This document shows positions 1 to 37,850 of a DNA stretch of 37,850 nucleotides, piece by piece. Position 1 is the stretch's first letter, and every line of letters starts with the position of its first letter. Location: UHGV virus genome UHGV-0195539. The stretch is one strand, 5' to 3'. The notes beneath the pieces are model-generated. The model was not told where the DNA came from and did no database searches. It saw nothing but the letters and a program-made list of their open reading frames with translations. This DNA is from a virus. A program made the translations under genes and the position numbers.

Positions 1-134
1 TTACACTGCAAGAACGCCGCAAATTCTGACCACATGATGTTAAGTCTGAACTCACACGGCGAACGGTGTATCATCCAGATGGCCAACAACATGGTTAAGC
101 ATAAAATGCTCACGATGATCGTTTTTTGCGGCAT
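1..134 (-). CDS. hypothetical small membrane protein, N-terminal part only (runs off window start)
   Basis: ATG at 134..132 preceded by AAAGGAG-type SD; frame open to window edge; begins MPQKTIIVSILCLTMLLAIWMI. Absent from ORF track because no stop in window. Confidence 0.3.
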   Translation of the reverse strand, partial: MPQKTIIVSILCLTMLLAIWMIHRSPCEFRLNIMWSEFAAFLQC

Positions 135-268
135 AGCGCTTGACTCCTTTTACAGGGAGGCGCTAACCTTCCACTTGTCTAGGGTAGGAATGGTTAGGGC
201 CTCGGGTTAAACAATATGTTTGACTCGGGGCCTTTCCACATCCGGCCTTCAGGTTTTCCTTCCAGCCG

Positions 269-571
269 TCAGCCGAAAGGCACCCGCGCGTAATGTACTG
301 GTTTTAAAGCCATACCGCAATCCTCCAGTTGTAGCGTTAACTGACTGCGTCCCTGATGGGATTTGCGCATTGTCTCCCGTGGAATATCTTTATCGTGGAA
401 GATCAACTGAGGCTGGCCAATAATTCTGTGCACACTTTCCATTGTTGAAAATGTGGCGCTGCACTCAAGGTTATTGCACTGATAGTATTTGTAGCGGATG
501 GTGCCGGTATCATTGGCGGCTTTACTGGTACGGATCCGGGCAGATGCGCCGCAGAATGGACAATGAAACAT
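269..571 (-). CDS. ogr: Ogr/Delta-family zinc-finger late transcription activator
   Basis: Internal Met of track ORF 269..646 starts MFHCPFCG...YYQCNNLECSATF, the Cys4 Ogr signature. About 100 aa, longer than the 72-aa P2 Ogr. Confidence 0.85.
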   Translation of the reverse strand: MFHCPFCGASARIRTSKAANDTGTIRYKYYQCNNLECSATFSTMESVHRIIGQPQLIFHDKDIPRETMRKSHQGRSQLTLQLEDCGMALKPVHYARVPFG

Positions 572-13289: not shown

Positions 13290-15335
13290 TTATGCGGCGT
13301 TGCTGTTATTGATATCCACCGTCACATACTCAATCAGCACGGGGTAGGTGTCCTTGTTACTGGTGATATCCGTGATCAGCAGTTTGTCGTTATCCAGTCC
13401 TGCCGCCGGGCATTTCGCCAGATTAAAGGCCGCCTGGGTCTGACCGTTGATGACCGGTGTCACGCTGATGCTGTTATTTCCGGCAAACCGGAACACCACG
13501 TTGTGCCAGTTATGATTAAATGCCCCGAAGGTTCCCAGTTTTGCATTCTGTTGTTTGTGCTGCATCAGATTCAGGTTTGCGCTGTCGCTCTGGATGAAGA
13601 AGGCGGCCAGCATATCGTTTCCTGCGCTGCCTTCCAGAACAACGTTTTCAGGTAGCTGAGAAACCGGCCAGTGCAGAGCCATGGCGAAGCGGTTTTCTGC
13701 CAGCTGAACACCTTCCGGGATTTTGAAACGAAAGGCAATTTCCCCGCCTTTCTGAAGTAATTCAGCTGCTTTACTTGCAGGCACATCGTGGGCGATTTTC
13801 CAGGCTGTTTGTTGCCCCTGGACTTTTTCCACTCGCATGGCTTTACCGCTCTGAGCAGCAGAGTCATTTACGACGGAGGCTTTTCCATCTGCCCCTGTCC
13901 AGCCCTGTTCTTTCAGTTTCCCTTCCTGTGCGTCTGCGCGATAAGCGACGGCCGTTGTTCTTGCCGGTGATGACTGCGTACCTGCGCCCGGCTGAGGTGC
14001 AGGTGTGTAGGGCTGCGGGCTTTCCGTGGTGGTGCTGTCTGAACCGGCCGTGGCGGGAGGTACTGCGACCACGCTGAACGGTGCGGGTGCACCTTTCAGG
14101 AAGGCGACGGTCTTCCCGGCATGCATCAGGATCGCCGTTGCCAGGCGGTCAGAAATAATGCCGCGGCGGGCCCATGAACTGAAATGCGTGGCGCGATCTG
14201 AAGAGGTCCAGTTTCCGTTACTACGGGATGCAGCACCGTAATAACCGGCTTCTGCCAGGTCAGGATCTTCGGCAGGCAGGTTTGTTGGCGTGTTAGCACC
14301 TTTCTCATCGGTCATCAGGGGCACAAAATAAATTTTTTGCGCTTCTTTGTTCTGATATGCACCGTAAACCACCGGGTACTGAGAGGTATATTGTTGTTTC
14401 CAGATATAGGTGGTATCGCCGCAAATCCAGGGAACAAGTGATGCGTTGCCTCCGGTGCACTGTGCAGCATATGCGCTGAGATCGGCGCGGAACTGATTCA
14501 CCATGTTCAGGAATAATTGCGGGTGCTGTGCGTATGTTGCTGATTTCAGATCAAACTCTCCCAGCATCCAGACCACGGATAACAGGACGTTTTTGGGGTT
14601 TTTATCCAGCGCGGCTTTTGTACGGGTAAGCAGATCGTTATACAGCGGTTTGCCGACGCCCCACAGGGATGATTCGGCCGTTGCTCCTGAAGATTCACTG
14701 AATGCCCCCTCAGCGCCGGAAGTAAGCGCTGACCCTCCACGACAGCAAGGTACCAGGAGGATCCCTGCATTTTTCGGGATAAACGCCAGTAATTTTTTGG
14801 CAATATGTAAACCCTGTCCGACGCAGCCATACTGACCTTTTGACAGATCGGCGTTCGGATGATTAAGGCTGCTCATATCCTGTACATCATGGAGACAGTG
14901 ATCTGCCGGAATAATATCGTTATAGGTACATGCAGCGCCGCCCGGTGTTACCGTACTGCGACGCGCTAACTGTTTAATTCGTGGATCAGGACTGTCGAAT
15001 GTATCGGGTAATGGCAGCCCCTCACCGTATGCCATGCCATTGGACTGACCAGCCAGTGGCACCACATAATAAAACTCTGGCTCAGTTGTGTGTCCAGTGT
15101 CGTATCCGTCGGTAGTGCCCGGTACGGGGTTTTCCTCGCCTTTTGGTACCGGAATGGCTGATGGCAGGTCTCTGTCAGTGACCAGTGCCTGCATCAGGTA
15201 AAATGGTGCTCCCGGCTCTGATGCTGAGACAGGTCCCCCAAGAAGTCCCCATCCTTCCCTGAGCATGGGCGCAAGTTTTTCGGCAAGTTCCTTGTTCGTC
15301 ATTGCCGTCACAAGCTGATAATGTTTCGGTACCAT
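13290..15335 (-). CDS. NanS-p-like sialate O-acetylesterase (SASA/SGNH-type esterase domain) with N- and C-terminal extensions
   Basis: GQSNG motif (PLAGQSNGMAYGEG) characteristic of SASA 9-O-acetylesterases; N-terminal YQLVTAMT...GW region resembles the DUF1737 domain of Stx-phage NanS-p. Start moved to second Met for GGAG SD. Confidence 0.7.
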   Translation of the reverse strand: MVPKHYQLVTAMTNKELAEKLAPMLREGWGLLGGPVSASEPGAPFYLMQALVTDRDLPSAIPVPKGEENPVPGTTDGYDTGHTTEPEFYYVVPLAGQSNGMAYGEGLPLPDTFDSPDPRIKQLARRSTVTPGGAACTYNDIIPADHCLHDVQDMSSLNHPNADLSKGQYGCVGQGLHIAKKLLAFIPKNAGILLVPCCRGGSALTSGAEGAFSESSGATAESSLWGVGKPLYNDLLTRTKAALDKNPKNVLLSVVWMLGEFDLKSATYAQHPQLFLNMVNQFRADLSAYAAQCTGGNASLVPWICGDTTYIWKQQYTSQYPVVYGAYQNKEAQKIYFVPLMTDEKGANTPTNLPAEDPDLAEAGYYGAASRSNGNWTSSDRATHFSSWARRGIISDRLATAILMHAGKTVAFLKGAPAPFSVVAVPPATAGSDSTTTESPQPYTPAPQPGAGTQSSPARTTAVAYRADAQEGKLKEQGWTGADGKASVVNDSAAQSGKAMRVEKVQGQQTAWKIAHDVPASKAAELLQKGGEIAFRFKIPEGVQLAENRFAMALHWPVSQLPENVVLEGSAGNDMLAAFFIQSDSANLNLMQHKQQNAKLGTFGAFNHNWHNVVFRFAGNNSISVTPVINGQTQAAFNLAKCPAAGLDNDKLLITDITSNKDTYPVLIEYVTVDINNSNAA

Positions 15336-15345
15336 AGTGACTCCG

Positions 15346-15621
15346 TTATTTTTCATGAGTGTTCATTCGTGCTGTCCGCTGCCGCTCCAGCCCGGCAATG
15401 GCGGCTTTATCGGCATTACAACTGTCCAGGGCATCTACCAGTCGGTCTCCCCAGTCAGCCACATCAGCCCATATCATGTGTTGCGGCAGCACCGGTACCG
15501 GTGTCTGTCTGGTCAGACTTTCCGGCACGCTCCCGCAAATGACGCCGGTTTTCAGCGGCGCTGGCGTGTTGTTGCAGGCTGTCAGCAACATCAGCAGGGG
15601 GAGAAGTGCGTGCGCACTCAT
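15346..15621 (-). CDS. o-spanin (Rz1/LysC-like outer-membrane lipoprotein)
   Basis: Signal peptide with lipobox LTAC (MSAHALLPLLMLLTAC); reading frame overlaps the 3' end of the i-spanin gene and extends past it. Confidence 0.6.
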   Translation of the reverse strand: MSAHALLPLLMLLTACNNTPAPLKTGVICGSVPESLTRQTPVPVLPQHMIWADVADWGDRLVDALDSCNADKAAIAGLERQRTARMNTHEK

Positions 15622-23800: not shown

Positions 23801-24336
23801 GTCGCTCTCCTTTGGTCTGTTTATGCCAGCCTGTATTCTGCGCTCACCTCATATTGTGCGCAAGTTTTCACCCGTGAATGACTGATACTTTAAATTCTAT
23901 TAACTTTATGATTTCAGTGATTTTTGTCTCTCTTTTTTATCCCGTTCGTCACGTCCGTTTCCCTCCCGATCTCCGACCTCGCCAGACGCAATCAGACGCA
24001 TTCTGACGGCCTGTTTCCCTGACCATGTTTTGATGTGGTTTTTCAAAACTGACTTTACTGCGTGCGTATCACGCGCCATACGACCCCAAATAAAGCAACC
24101 CGCCTTCCATCCCTCAATTCGGGCGCCCTTCCCTCGTCGCCTGCGCGCTGCAATTGCCTCGTTTTTCGTGCACCGTGCAAACCGGCCTCAGCCAGCGCCG
24201 TTACCGGGCGGAATGGGGAAAAAGTACATTAGAAAAATTGTGCAATTTCGTGCGCTTTTGTGCAGTTTTGATCTTGCGATTTTTTGTGGCAGGTGGTGAT
24301 GATATTCATCTGTCTGAATCAGTGGGAGACTGCCGG

Positions 24337-35088: not shown

Positions 35089-35430
35089 ATGGTTATCTTG
35101 TCAATAGACTATGCAAAAAAGCTACGTCAAATACGCAAGGCTGAAGGGCTAACGCAAAAGGAATTTGCGGATATTACGGGGTTGTCTTTAGCTGCCATAA
35201 GGAACTATGAATCAGGGCAAAAAAGCGCCAGAGCCAAAATTGTTGAGATGGTTCTCCAAGTTGATCGGTTTGAAAAATACATGATGTGGCTAATAAAAGA
35301 TAAGACAGTGCCTGCTGCCGGTCAGATAGCTCCGGCTCTCTCTCTTGATGGCTCCATTCAGTCGGAGGACGATCAGGATTCAATCCCAGCCACCCAAAAA
35401 TCATCCCGATCAGGCCGCAATGCTGGCTAA
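35089..35430 (+). CDS. C: immunity repressor C (XRE-type HTH)
   Basis: HTH LTQKEFADITGLSLAAIRNYESGQ and QIAPAL motif match P2 C repressor; directly upstream of int. Confidence 0.8.
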   Translation: MVILSIDYAKKLRQIRKAEGLTQKEFADITGLSLAAIRNYESGQKSARAKIVEMVLQVDRFEKYMMWLIKDKTVPAAGQIAPALSLDGSIQSEDDQDSIPATQKSSRSGRNAG

Positions 35431-35499: not shown

Positions 35500-36492
35500 A
35501 TGTCGATTAAGCAACTCAAAGACGGGCGTTATAAGGTTGATGTAAGACCGCAAGGGACGGAAGGAAAGCGGATCCGTAAGATTTTTACCCTGAAGTCAAA
35601 GGCACAGGAGTTTGAAAGGTATGTTTTGCAGAATTTCCACGATAAACCGTGGCAGGCCAAGCCAGCTGATCAGCGTCGGTTATCCGAACTGATAGATGCC
35701 TGGTGGGTGCTTGATGGCCGGAATCAGCCTTACGGGGATACTTACAGGGTCAGGCTGGAAAAAATAAACCGTGAGATGAGGGACCCCCGCGCCAGTGAGA
35801 TGACGCGAAAGTTTATGCTCGGGTATCGTTCAGACAAATTACAGGCCGGATTAATGCCCTCCAGTGTTAATCGTGATTTGTGTGCCTTGTCTGCAATGTT
35901 TACCTCGCTGATTGATGCGGAGGTTTTCCATAACGAAAACCCGGTGCGTGGAATACGCAAGCTCAAGGTCAGGAATACAGAAATGGCCTTTCTTTCAGAT
36001 GATGAGATTGATCGGCTGCTTGAACGACTCGAGGGGGATGCGCGTCGCGTTGCTGTTCTGTGTCTTTCCACTGGCGCAAGGTGGGGGGAAGCAGCTGGTT
36101 TACGTGGTGAGCATATCGTTGGTAACCGCGTAATGTTCTTTAACACAAAGAATGGAAAATCCCGTGCGGTTCCTGTTTCTGACACGGTGCTTTCGTTGAT
36201 AAAAACCCGAAAAACCGGGCTATTGTACCAGGCTGATTACATCCGTTTTAGGGATATCCTTCAGGAGGTGAAACCGGATTTACCCAAAGGTCAGGCGACT
36301 CACGTTATGCGTCACACGTTCGCCACGCATTTCATGATGAACGGCGGAAATATCGTTACGTTACAGCGAATCCTTGGGCACGCCACGATTCAACAAACGA
36401 TGACGTATGCGCATTTTTCACCGGACTTTTTACAGGATGCGATTAGCTTTAATCCGCTGGCTGATAGTGTCCATAAACTGTCCATTGACTAG
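35500..36492 (+). CDS. int: tyrosine integrase (P2 Int family)
   Basis: MSIKQLKDGRYKVDVRP start, STGARWGEAAGLR, ATHVMRHTFATHFMMNGGNI, LQRILGH, YAHF catalytic region; GGAGGGG SD before the ATG. Confidence 0.9.
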   Translation: MSIKQLKDGRYKVDVRPQGTEGKRIRKIFTLKSKAQEFERYVLQNFHDKPWQAKPADQRRLSELIDAWWVLDGRNQPYGDTYRVRLEKINREMRDPRASEMTRKFMLGYRSDKLQAGLMPSSVNRDLCALSAMFTSLIDAEVFHNENPVRGIRKLKVRNTEMAFLSDDEIDRLLERLEGDARRVAVLCLSTGARWGEAAGLRGEHIVGNRVMFFNTKNGKSRAVPVSDTVLSLIKTRKTGLLYQADYIRFRDILQEVKPDLPKGQATHVMRHTFATHFMMNGGNIVTLQRILGHATIQQTMTYAHFSPDFLQDAISFNPLADSVHKLSID

Positions 36493-36607
36493 TTGTAATT
36501 TGCGTTAATTTGCTCCCCTTGTTTTGATTTAGTCATTGAAAAATAAGTAAATCATCAAGGGGAGTAAGGTGTGTTAAATCTCCTGCGGGCGCTTTTTTTG
36601 TCTCCCT

Positions 36608-36621
36608 TTGATACCGAACAA
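36608..36621. promoter_or_regulatory. FNR-like half-site pair (TTGATaccgAACAA) in the host dmsA promoter region
   Basis: Resembles FNR consensus TTGAT-N4-ATCAA; dmsA is a known FNR-activated gene. Confidence 0.3.
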
Positions 36622-36791
36622 TAATTACTCCTCACTTACACGTAATACTACTTTCGAGTGAAAATCTACCTATCTCTTTGATTTTCAAATTATTCGATGT
36701 ATACAAGCCTATATAGCGAACTGCTATAGAAATAATTACACAATACGGTTTGTTACTGGAATCAATCGTGAGCAAGCTTGAGTGAGCCATT

Positions 36792-37850
36792 ATGAAAACG
36801 AAAATCCCTGATGCGGTATTGGCTGCTGAGGTGAGTCGCCGTGGTTTGGTAAAAACGACAGCGATCGGCGGCCTGGCAATGGCCAGCAGCGCATTAACAT
36901 TACCTTTTAGTCGGATTGCGCACGCTGTCGATAGCGCCATTCCAACAAAATCAGACGAAAAGGTTATCTGGAGCGCCTGTACAGTTAACTGTGGTAGTCG
37001 CTGCCCGCTACGTATGCACGTCGTGGACGGTGAAATCAAATATGTCGAAACGGACAATACCGGCGATGACAATTACGACGGCCTGCACCAGGTTCGCGCC
37101 TGTCTGCGTGGGCGTTCCATGCGTCGCCGTGTCTACAATCCGGACCGCCTGAAATATCCGATGAAACGAGTCGGGGCGCGCGGTGAAGGCAAATTCGAGC
37201 GCATTAGCTGGGAAGAAGCCTACGACATCATCGCGACCAATATGCAGCGCCTGATCAAAGAGTACGGCAACGAGTCTATCTATCTGAACTATGGCACCGG
37301 TACGCTGGGCGGCACCATGACCCGCTCCTGGCCGCCGGGAAATACCCTGGTCGCGCGCCTGATGAACTGCTGCGGCGGTTATCTTAACCATTACGGTGAC
37401 TACTCTTCTGCGCAAATTGCGGAAGGTTTGAACTATACCTACGGCGGCTGGGCAGATGGTAACAGCCCGTCGGATATCGAAAACAGTAAATTGGTAGTGC
37501 TGTTTGGTAATAACCCAGGCGAAACGCGAATGAGTGGCGGTGGGGTGACTTACTATCTTGAACAGGCACGCCAGAAATCTAATGCCCGCATGATCATCAT
37601 CGATCCGCGCTATACCGACACCGGTGCCGGGCGCGAAGATGAGTGGATCCCTATTCGTCCAGGAACAGATGCCGCACTGGTTAACGGTCTGGCGTATGTC
37701 ATGATCACCGAAAACCTGGTGGATCAGGCATTCCTTGATAAATATTGCGTTGGCTACGATGAGAAAACCCTGCCCGCTAGCGCGCCGAAAAATGGCCACT
37801 ATAAAGCTTATATTCTGGGTGAAGGGCCAGATGGCGTGGCTAAAACACCG
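36792..37850 (+). CDS. dmsA: anaerobic DMSO reductase catalytic subunit DmsA, N-terminal part (runs off window end)
   Basis: Begins MKTKIPDAVLAAEVSRRGLVKTTAIGGLAMASSAL (twin-arginine signal) with CTVNCGSRCPL cluster motif; matches E. coli DmsA as recalled. Not in ORF track because no stop in window. Confidence 0.85.
   Translation, partial: MKTKIPDAVLAAEVSRRGLVKTTAIGGLAMASSALTLPFSRIAHAVDSAIPTKSDEKVIWSACTVNCGSRCPLRMHVVDGEIKYVETDNTGDDNYDGLHQVRACLRGRSMRRRVYNPDRLKYPMKRVGARGEGKFERISWEEAYDIIATNMQRLIKEYGNESIYLNYGTGTLGGTMTRSWPPGNTLVARLMNCCGGYLNHYGDYSSAQIAEGLNYTYGGWADGNSPSDIENSKLVVLFGNNPGETRMSGGGVTYYLEQARQKSNARMIIIDPRYTDTGAGREDEWIPIRPGTDAALVNGLAYVMITENLVDQAFLDKYCVGYDEKTLPASAPKNGHYKAYILGEGPDGVAKTP

Follow-up and report, generated by a model that had tools for sequence, protein, structure and literature searches.

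The right end of a P2-like prophage lies in the serS terminator upstream of dmsA in Escherichia coli

Phage P2 uses one preferred attachment site in the host chromosome and several secondary sites which match it only in part. In P2 lysogens int is co-transcribed with the repressor gene C. The attachment region in the P2 record (NC_001895) is ordered P' arm, Cox sites, 27-bp core, IHF site, P arm and ogr terminator. A prophage of the same family, PhiECO5, was described at positions 911187-948481 of strain UTI89 (Nilsson and Haggard-Ljungquist, 2011, Bacteriophage 1:207; PMC3448106). Its ends in the UTI89 sequence are 32 nt past the serS stop codon and 93 nt past the int stop codon, dmsA comes next, and attL and attR have a perfect 20-bp core, AAAGCGCCTGCGGGCGCTTT, in common. 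PhiECO1, PhiECO2 and PhiECO3 of the same study were considered as further users of this site and rejected; PhiECO1 resides in strain HS between rcdA and ybjL. Beyond the 2011 report a literature search on prophage attachment at serS/dmsA yielded nothing specific.

Here we examined a stretch of viral DNA of 37,850 nucleotides (UHGV virus genome UHGV-0195539; 'the window'). It contains a P2-like prophage which is read from the ogr side to the int side and which is followed by the 5' part of dmsA. We are highly confident that the interval between int and dmsA is the attR of a P2-family (Peduoviridae) prophage which was integrated by its Int into the intrinsic terminator of serS. The genes which matter for this reading are:

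1..134, minus strand: Hok/Gef-family toxin gene, the final 7 nt of which are lost at the window edge
269..571, minus strand: ogr/Delta late activator (Pfam Ogr_Delta, 7e-16, and annotation), the leftmost core phage gene
34460..34984, minus strand: Cox-family protein in divergent orientation to C, presumably the directionality factor of excision
35089..35430, plus strand: C-type immunity repressor with helix-turn-helix (HTH; Pfam HTH_3, 3.7e-10), upstream of int
35500..36492, plus strand: tyrosine integrase of the P2 Int family, 330 amino acids, transcribed towards the junction
36792..37850, plus strand: 5' part of dmsA, annotated as dmsA in all matching genomes and continuing past the window end

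Next to ogr are late control gene D, sheath, tube and further tail genes. The integrase has the Pfam domains Int_N (7.5e-28) and Phage_integrase (7.1e-20), both above their cut-offs. A full-length comparison with P2 Int gave 52% identity (334 aligned residues, E = 5e-134), and in the nearly identical prophage of strain LZSFT34 the protein is annotated as phage integrase. The order cox (minus), C (plus), int (plus) is that of P2. C is clearly an HTH protein; the match of the 174-residue Cox-family protein to Pfam Phage_Cox is sub-threshold (1.4e-5, 25.3 bits against a cut-off of 27.5), and the same gene is annotated as a Cox family DNA-binding protein in LZSFT34. Positions 14126-15084 within a 688-residue open reading frame (13290-15356, minus strand) are about 74% identical to orf3 of the Stx2-converting phage 86, for which the annotation gives a SASA-family carbohydrate esterase. 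Lambdoid Stx phages have this mosaic piece in common with the window phage.

The junction was located by comparing positions 36200-37100, i.e. the 3' end of int, the spacer and the start of dmsA, with 5426 complete E. coli genomes. The query was matched in 5425 of them. In prophage-free genomes the match starts at query position 377 or 383, corresponding to 36576 or 36582 of the window, and runs from there rightwards only. This places the prophage-host junction between int and dmsA, as proposed in an earlier note on this DNA. The distance of about 300 bp given there was also correct: the int stop is at 36492, the dmsA ATG at 36792 and the spacer, 36493-36791, comprises 299 nt. The attachment sequences were then defined by aligning the attR of the window with two others, the empty serS-dmsA spacer of BLR(DE3) and the attL of the near-identical lysogen LZSFT34. 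attB is AAAGCGCCTGCGGGCGCTTTTT (longer span AAAGCGCCTGCGGGCGCTTTTTTTG), attL is AAAGCGCCTGCGGGCGGTTTTT (longer span AAAGCGCCTGCGGGCGGTTTTTGCA) and attR over 36576-36600 is AAATCTCCTGCGGGCGCTTTTTTTG. Two segments of attR are relevant:

36576..36597, plus strand: attR core region AAATCTCCTGCGGGCGCTTTTT, identical to attB at 20 of 22 and to attL at 19 of 22 positions
36582..36591, plus strand: CCTGCGGGCG, identical in attB, attL and attR

The bases at 36579 and 36581 are phage-specific and the base at 36592 is host-specific. They bracket the exchange, and strand exchange must therefore fall within CCTGCGGGCG. While CCTGCGGGCG is exact in attL, attR and the empty attB, identity over AAAnCnCCTGCGGGCGnTTTTT is 19-20 of 22. 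An attB-type identity over about 20 bp is lacking, because attR reads AAATCTCC... and attL reads ...GGCGGTTTTT, with three mismatches to attB within 22 bp. The core common to attL, attR and attB is thus shorter and less perfect than that of P2 or PhiECO5. For annotation, the right boundary of the prophage is to be set at 36581/36582, neither at the int stop nor at the motif favored in the earlier note.

The closest deposited matches to the int-C region are vB_EcoM-569R5, vB_EcoM-705R2 and a record named 'Entero_P88' (82.6%). vB_EcoM-569R5 (ON470599.1) was tried as a source of an intact attP and discarded: in this partial-genome record int is followed by host dmsA, which marks it as an excerpt from a prophage. 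attP was therefore derived from the phage sides of attR and attL. Its core would read AAATCTCCTGCGGGCGGTTTTT, over a longer span AAATCTCCTGCGGGCGGTTTTTGCA and across the circular junction ...AAATCTCCTGCGGGCGGTTTTTGCATGAG..., or wider GTGTGTTAAATCTCCTGCGGGCGGTTTTTGCATGAGATT. Compared with attB, such an attP would have 10 bp of uninterrupted identity and 19 of 22 matches overall, unusually short for a primary P2-type site.

The end positions of PhiECO5, serS stop +32 and int stop +93, denote the same site and the same crossover as in the window: the prophage under study occupies the serS-dmsA spacer, and its crossover falls in AAAGCGCCTGCGGGCGCTTT. Site and kind of element were thus published in 2011, and the window prophage is a further member. 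Similarities extend to the gene order (hok/gef, ogr ... cox, C, int, dmsA), the TGTCCAT arm repeats, the conserved block described below and the hairpin in the P' arm, whereas between int stop and core the two P' arms differ visibly. In addition, GCG on the left of the core is replaced by TCT in the window phage, and C on the right by G, which reduces the 20-bp identity to 10 uninterrupted bp.

The attachment region was then compared with that of P2. The phage arm contains three elements ahead of the core:

36468..36485, plus strand: P' arm-type Int sites, TGTCCAT twice (36468-36474 and 36479-36485), within the 3' end of int
36496..36513, plus strand: two exact direct repeats TAATTTGC, 10 bp apart, right after the int stop
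36510..36567, plus strand: long imperfect inverted repeat (hairpin), the 3' half of which holds 36539-36564

In P2 the P' arm consists of two TGTCCAC in the 3' end of int; the TGTCCAT repeats match them in place and form. Their complement, ATGGACA, fits the P2-type arm consensus tgTGGaCa (PMC3448106), and the repeats are invariant in four diverged attR arms. Two direct arm-type repeats flank the core on each side, TGTCCAT twice in int and TGTCCATataaTGTCCAT at the attL of LZSFT34. By analogy with P2, where Cox binds between P' arm and core, the TAATTTGC repeats are candidate boxes for a Cox-like accessory protein. The core begins 83 nt past the int stop, compared to about 78-79 nt in P2. In int sense the P2 core is AAATCTCCCTTACACGGGCTTATTTTTT, and the window reads AAATCTCCTGCGGGCG... 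at 36576; the first 8 nt are identical, i.e. both cores start with AAATCTCC in the same orientation. At the position annotated as IHF site in P2 an A/T block, TTAATTAACTGAAAATAAAAGGGATTTATTTT, is present. By eye it resembles the P2 site, and we consider it a putative IHF site. Otherwise the layout is alike, with a hairpin-containing accessory region, an A/T-rich IHF-like block, a P arm and a terminator on the ogr side. The remainder of the core and attB differ: in P2 the identity with locI is 27 bp, here the partner is the serS terminator. A further difference to P2 are the two hok/gef genes between ogr and the attachment site. Taken as a P2 layout, attP would run from the arm repeats in the 3' end of int through the accessory region with its hairpin into the core. 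Int would act at the arm repeats and core; IHF and Cox would presumably act as in P2.

What is the target of the insertion? attB is the intrinsic terminator of serS, 29-38 nt past the serS stop codon. This terminator, AAAGCGCCTGCGGGCGCTTTTTTT in the empty serS-dmsA spacer, has the stem AAAAAGCGCC/GGCGCTTTTT, the loop TGCG and a T-run; CCTGCGGGCG corresponds to the loop and the inner stem. We suggest that the stem arms, AAAGCGCC and GGCGCTTT, supply inverted core-type sites and that strands are exchanged in the loop region, within CCTGCGGGCG (36582-36591). The insertion splits the hairpin. Its folding energy is -16.3 kcal/mol in attB (z = -4.2). The attL hybrid folds with -13.2 kcal/mol and keeps five T's, and serS probably still terminates there. 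The attR hybrid has -4.1 kcal/mol, no better than shuffled sequences. Only the left half of the terminator is replaced by the insertion, and the following remains in the window:

36588..36599, plus strand: right half of the serS terminator (GGCGC and T-run); the hairpin cannot form in attR

Integration thus leaves a slightly weaker hybrid serS terminator at attL, and the hairpin upstream of dmsA is lost. The second half of attP, which beyond the core comprises the IHF-like A/T block, two TGTCCAT and the ogr-side terminator, would now be at attL, outside the window. That serS keeps a terminator and dmsA its promoter is the usual non-disruptive outcome for temperate phages.

The proximity to dmsA had raised the question whether the insertion affects dmsABC expression via the FNR-regulated promoter. 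The relevant element is in host DNA:

36608..36621, plus strand: TTGATACCGAACAA, candidate FNR box in the class II promoter of dmsA, unchanged host DNA

No other site in the window agrees exactly with the FNR consensus TTGAT-N4-AWCAA. This box is presumably the functional dmsA FNR site, as reportedly mapped by Bearson et al., 2002. A full-text literature search for the sequence of the box found nothing. dmsABC is listed among the operons which FNR activates from a class II position, here -41.5, and ChIP peaks of FNR and sigma-70 were reported at 939,992 and 940,050, respectively (Myers et al., 2013; PMC3688515). The assignment of the box as functional also draws on this position and these peaks. 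By an approximate coordinate conversion they map to about 36602 (FNR) and 36660 (sigma-70) of the window. For this mapping an offset of 777 bp between two MG1655 sequence versions was assumed. The dmsA start site would be near 36656, which would put the exchange region at about -74 to -65. Positions 36582-37100 are 100% identical to many prophage-free genomes. Judged by sequence, the dmsA promoter is therefore intact and only DNA upstream of about -74 is replaced. An effect on dmsABC through the promoter thus finds no support in the sequence; from 36582 to 37100, FNR box included, the promoter is essentially unchanged.

Among the consequences of the insertion only one could act on dmsA, namely that the hairpin ahead of it is gone and int is transcribed in its direction. 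Because the terminator hairpin upstream of dmsA is destroyed, read-through from int is possible. By analogy with P2, C would share a transcript with int, and C-int read-through might cause a low, FNR-independent (aerobic) expression of dmsABC; alternatively, the new upstream DNA might alter activation. The gene order C-int as in P2 and the drop in folding energy from -16.3 to -4.1 kcal/mol speak for a measurable effect of this kind. In addition, a generic terminator scan did not find a terminator-like site between the int stop and dmsA, and int points at dmsA. However, downstream of -74 the promoter does not differ from that of empty sites, FNR promoters of class II do not require a specific upstream site, and int transcripts may end or be processed at the strong hairpin (36510-36567). 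Moreover, an insertion at this place is tolerated in 344 genomes. We therefore rate a measurable alteration of dmsABC as improbable, and the preferred reading remains an integration in the serS terminator which leaves the dmsA promoter intact.

Is the integrase restricted to the serS terminator? A P' arm identical to that of the window was found joined to five different host sequences, in the window and in strains S19-651, KY177, KY179 and STEC2018-607. The integrase of S19-651 is 100% identical to that of the window by direct comparison, and KY179 and STEC2018-607 carry an integrase of the same accession, WP_016237838.1. KY177 shares the P' arm, but its int is filed under another accession. 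The host flanks are:

Window: dmsA flank (serS terminator), TGCGGGCGCTTTTTTT after AAATCTCC
S19-651: nadA flank (terminator of the lysQ tRNA operon), TAAAGGCGCTTTTTT after AAATCTCC
KY177: flank in the cycA terminator, TGCGGGTGCCTTTG after AAATCTCC
KY179: flank in the convergent zapB/rraA terminator, TTGCGGTGCCTTTTC after AAATCTCC
STEC2018-607: flank in a truncated DUF2138 gene, AGAAGGTGTTTTGCC after AAATCTCC

At all five the switch from phage to host occurs directly after AAATCTCC, whatever the loop sequence; at the heterologous sites it is right after CC (36583|36584). The left junctions at three sites have the form host-stem|TGCGGGCGGTTTTTGCATGAG. The empty lysQ site is AAAGCGCCCTAAAGGCGCTTTTTT; it is occupied in one of the 5426 genomes. 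Four of the five targets are a GC-rich stem hairpin followed by a T-rich tract. These sequences fit a mechanism in which Int uses terminator stems as its inverted core-type sites and tolerates a heterologous overlap. Thus, five natural junctions map the exchange to one position and suggest terminator stems as core-type sites. Because P2 is known to use secondary sites, multi-site use is a variation on a known theme. The deduced attP core is a degenerate PhiECO5-type core (AAATCTCC TGCG GGCGG). Tentatively, this core may relax target choice, with the integrase recognizing the stem arms of GC-rich intrinsic terminators; we regard this as possible, with the balance somewhat against it. If true, a P2-type phage would have been caught in the act of switching attachment sites.

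The left end of the prophage is not in the window. The earlier note had found no convincing repeat in 1..268, and this was borne out: the core pattern occurs once in the whole window (36576-36597), as does the exact 10-mer (36582-36591), and a second copy of the att core was not found in it. The hok/gef gene at 1..134 is still prophage DNA; the window therefore begins within the prophage. For the left flank near-identical lysogens were used; the best genome match to window positions 1-25000 is 99.6%. In these, attL is located about 690 bp to the left of position 1 and adjoins serS, in agreement with the suspicion that the left end is beyond the window. The LZSFT34 prophage (NZ_CP132728.1, 4479608-4516308) is 99.5-99.9% identical and its attL core is 690 bp left of the base matching position 1. 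From there to attL follow the last 7 nt of hok/gef, a second hok/gef, a terminator and finally the P arm. Read from attL into the phage, the A/T block comes first, then TGTCCATataaTGTCCAT and then the terminator. By comparison with LZSFT34, the attL left of the window should carry AAAGCGCCTGCGGGCGG next to serS, with a core reading GCAAAAACCGCCCGCAGGCGCTTT on the minus strand, i.e. AAAGCGCCTGCGGGCGGTTTTTGC on the plus strand, and the serS stop would be 28 nt to the left of it. The prophage thus extends about 0.7 kb past the left window edge. Over window positions 1-36200 LZSFT34 is about 501 bp longer, which implies an internal indel somewhere; its match to positions 1-25000 ends at 24269. The two hok/gef-family modules between ogr and attL are in tandem and have similar upstream regions, cargo at the end of the prophage. 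The window edge cuts the inner copy 7 nt ahead of its stop codon.

A genuine attR does not by itself prove that serS is on the other side, since an inversion between two prophage copies may have swapped the flanks. Such a case seems to exist. STEC2018-607 (NZ_CP075697.1) has two att modules, at 855796-855884 and 4388141-4388271; its serS-linked copy ends at the truncated DUF2138 gene and the second arm, at a distance of about 3.5 Mb, adjoins dmsA. Such an arrangement suggests that two prophage copies recombined and thereby caused a large inversion. Two copies of the arm are present in three of 17 genomes. Yet lysogens with a single copy are the rule, serS is on the left in seven of the 12 genomes with this phage backbone, and the exact window-type attR adjoins dmsA in ten genomes. 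A left flank other than serS is thus quite unlikely for the window prophage, and an ordinary insertion between serS and dmsA is preferred.

The earlier note had pointed to a different core, a stretch at about 36538..36564 with resemblance to the P2 core. The stretch, AAAAATAAGTAAATCATCAAGGGGAG at 36539-36564, occurs once in the window and in none of 100 shuffles, although the pattern was tailored to the window. The resemblance holds only in part: it is seen with the P2 core as conventionally written, which is inverted with respect to int, the spacer is 9 instead of 7 nt and there is an extra G. In favor of the stretch are the 9-mer AAAAATAAG, identical to the P2 core, and a near-match to AAGGGAG, both found less than 75 bp past the int stop, the uniqueness of the combined pattern in the window and the block TTGAAAAATAAGTAAATCATCA, which is invariant among four diverged arms. 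Nevertheless there is practically no chance that GAAAAATAAG...AAGGGGAG is the att core, because 36493-36575 is wholly absent from empty sites and the stretch moves with the phage to four other chromosomal sites. Moreover, with respect to int it runs opposite to the P2 core, its spacer differs in length and a conserved hairpin has it as its 3' arm. Alignment to the prophage-free serS-dmsA region, which had been proposed as a check, did define attR and the core, yet it rejected the stretch as crossover: the stretch belongs to the phage arm, and strands were exchanged in the serS terminator, 18-27 bp to the right of it.

What then is the function of this stretch? The invariance of TTGAAAAATAAGTAAATCATCA in four diverged arms indicates that the block is probably functional. 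The 108 nt between int stop and core fold with -32.1 kcal/mol (z = -4.5), and P2 has an analogous hairpin between int stop and core (-25.2 kcal/mol, z = -2.8). Five of 29 consensus pairs keep pairing via changes on both sides, a count from only three diverged arm sequences. The hairpin at 36510-36567 is absent from empty sites. Candidate roles are a 3' structure of the int mRNA or a site for an accessory protein (Cox/Int).

How common are such insertions? Int adjoins dmsA in 344 of the 5426 complete E. coli genomes (about 6%, at least 80% query coverage). The P' arm of the window type (36493-36581) is rare, with 20 places in 17 genomes of the same set. An arm of the THO-003/569R5 type with an attB-type core is found in 284 genomes, in each at one place. 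The numbers 284 and 344 are compatible with modules having a perfect core always residing at dmsA, but are no proof. The structural backbone (window 1-25000) is likewise rare, 12 of 5426 genomes. For terminase, portal and scaffold the closest deposited phages are P88 and other members of Xuanwuvirus (Peduoviridae) with about 72% DNA identity, too distant for the same species, and most of the window genome is without a close match. The backbone is paired with at least three att/int modules: besides the serS type, KY176 has one adjacent to prpB and 2013C-3033 one adjacent to ihfA. This indicates module exchange.
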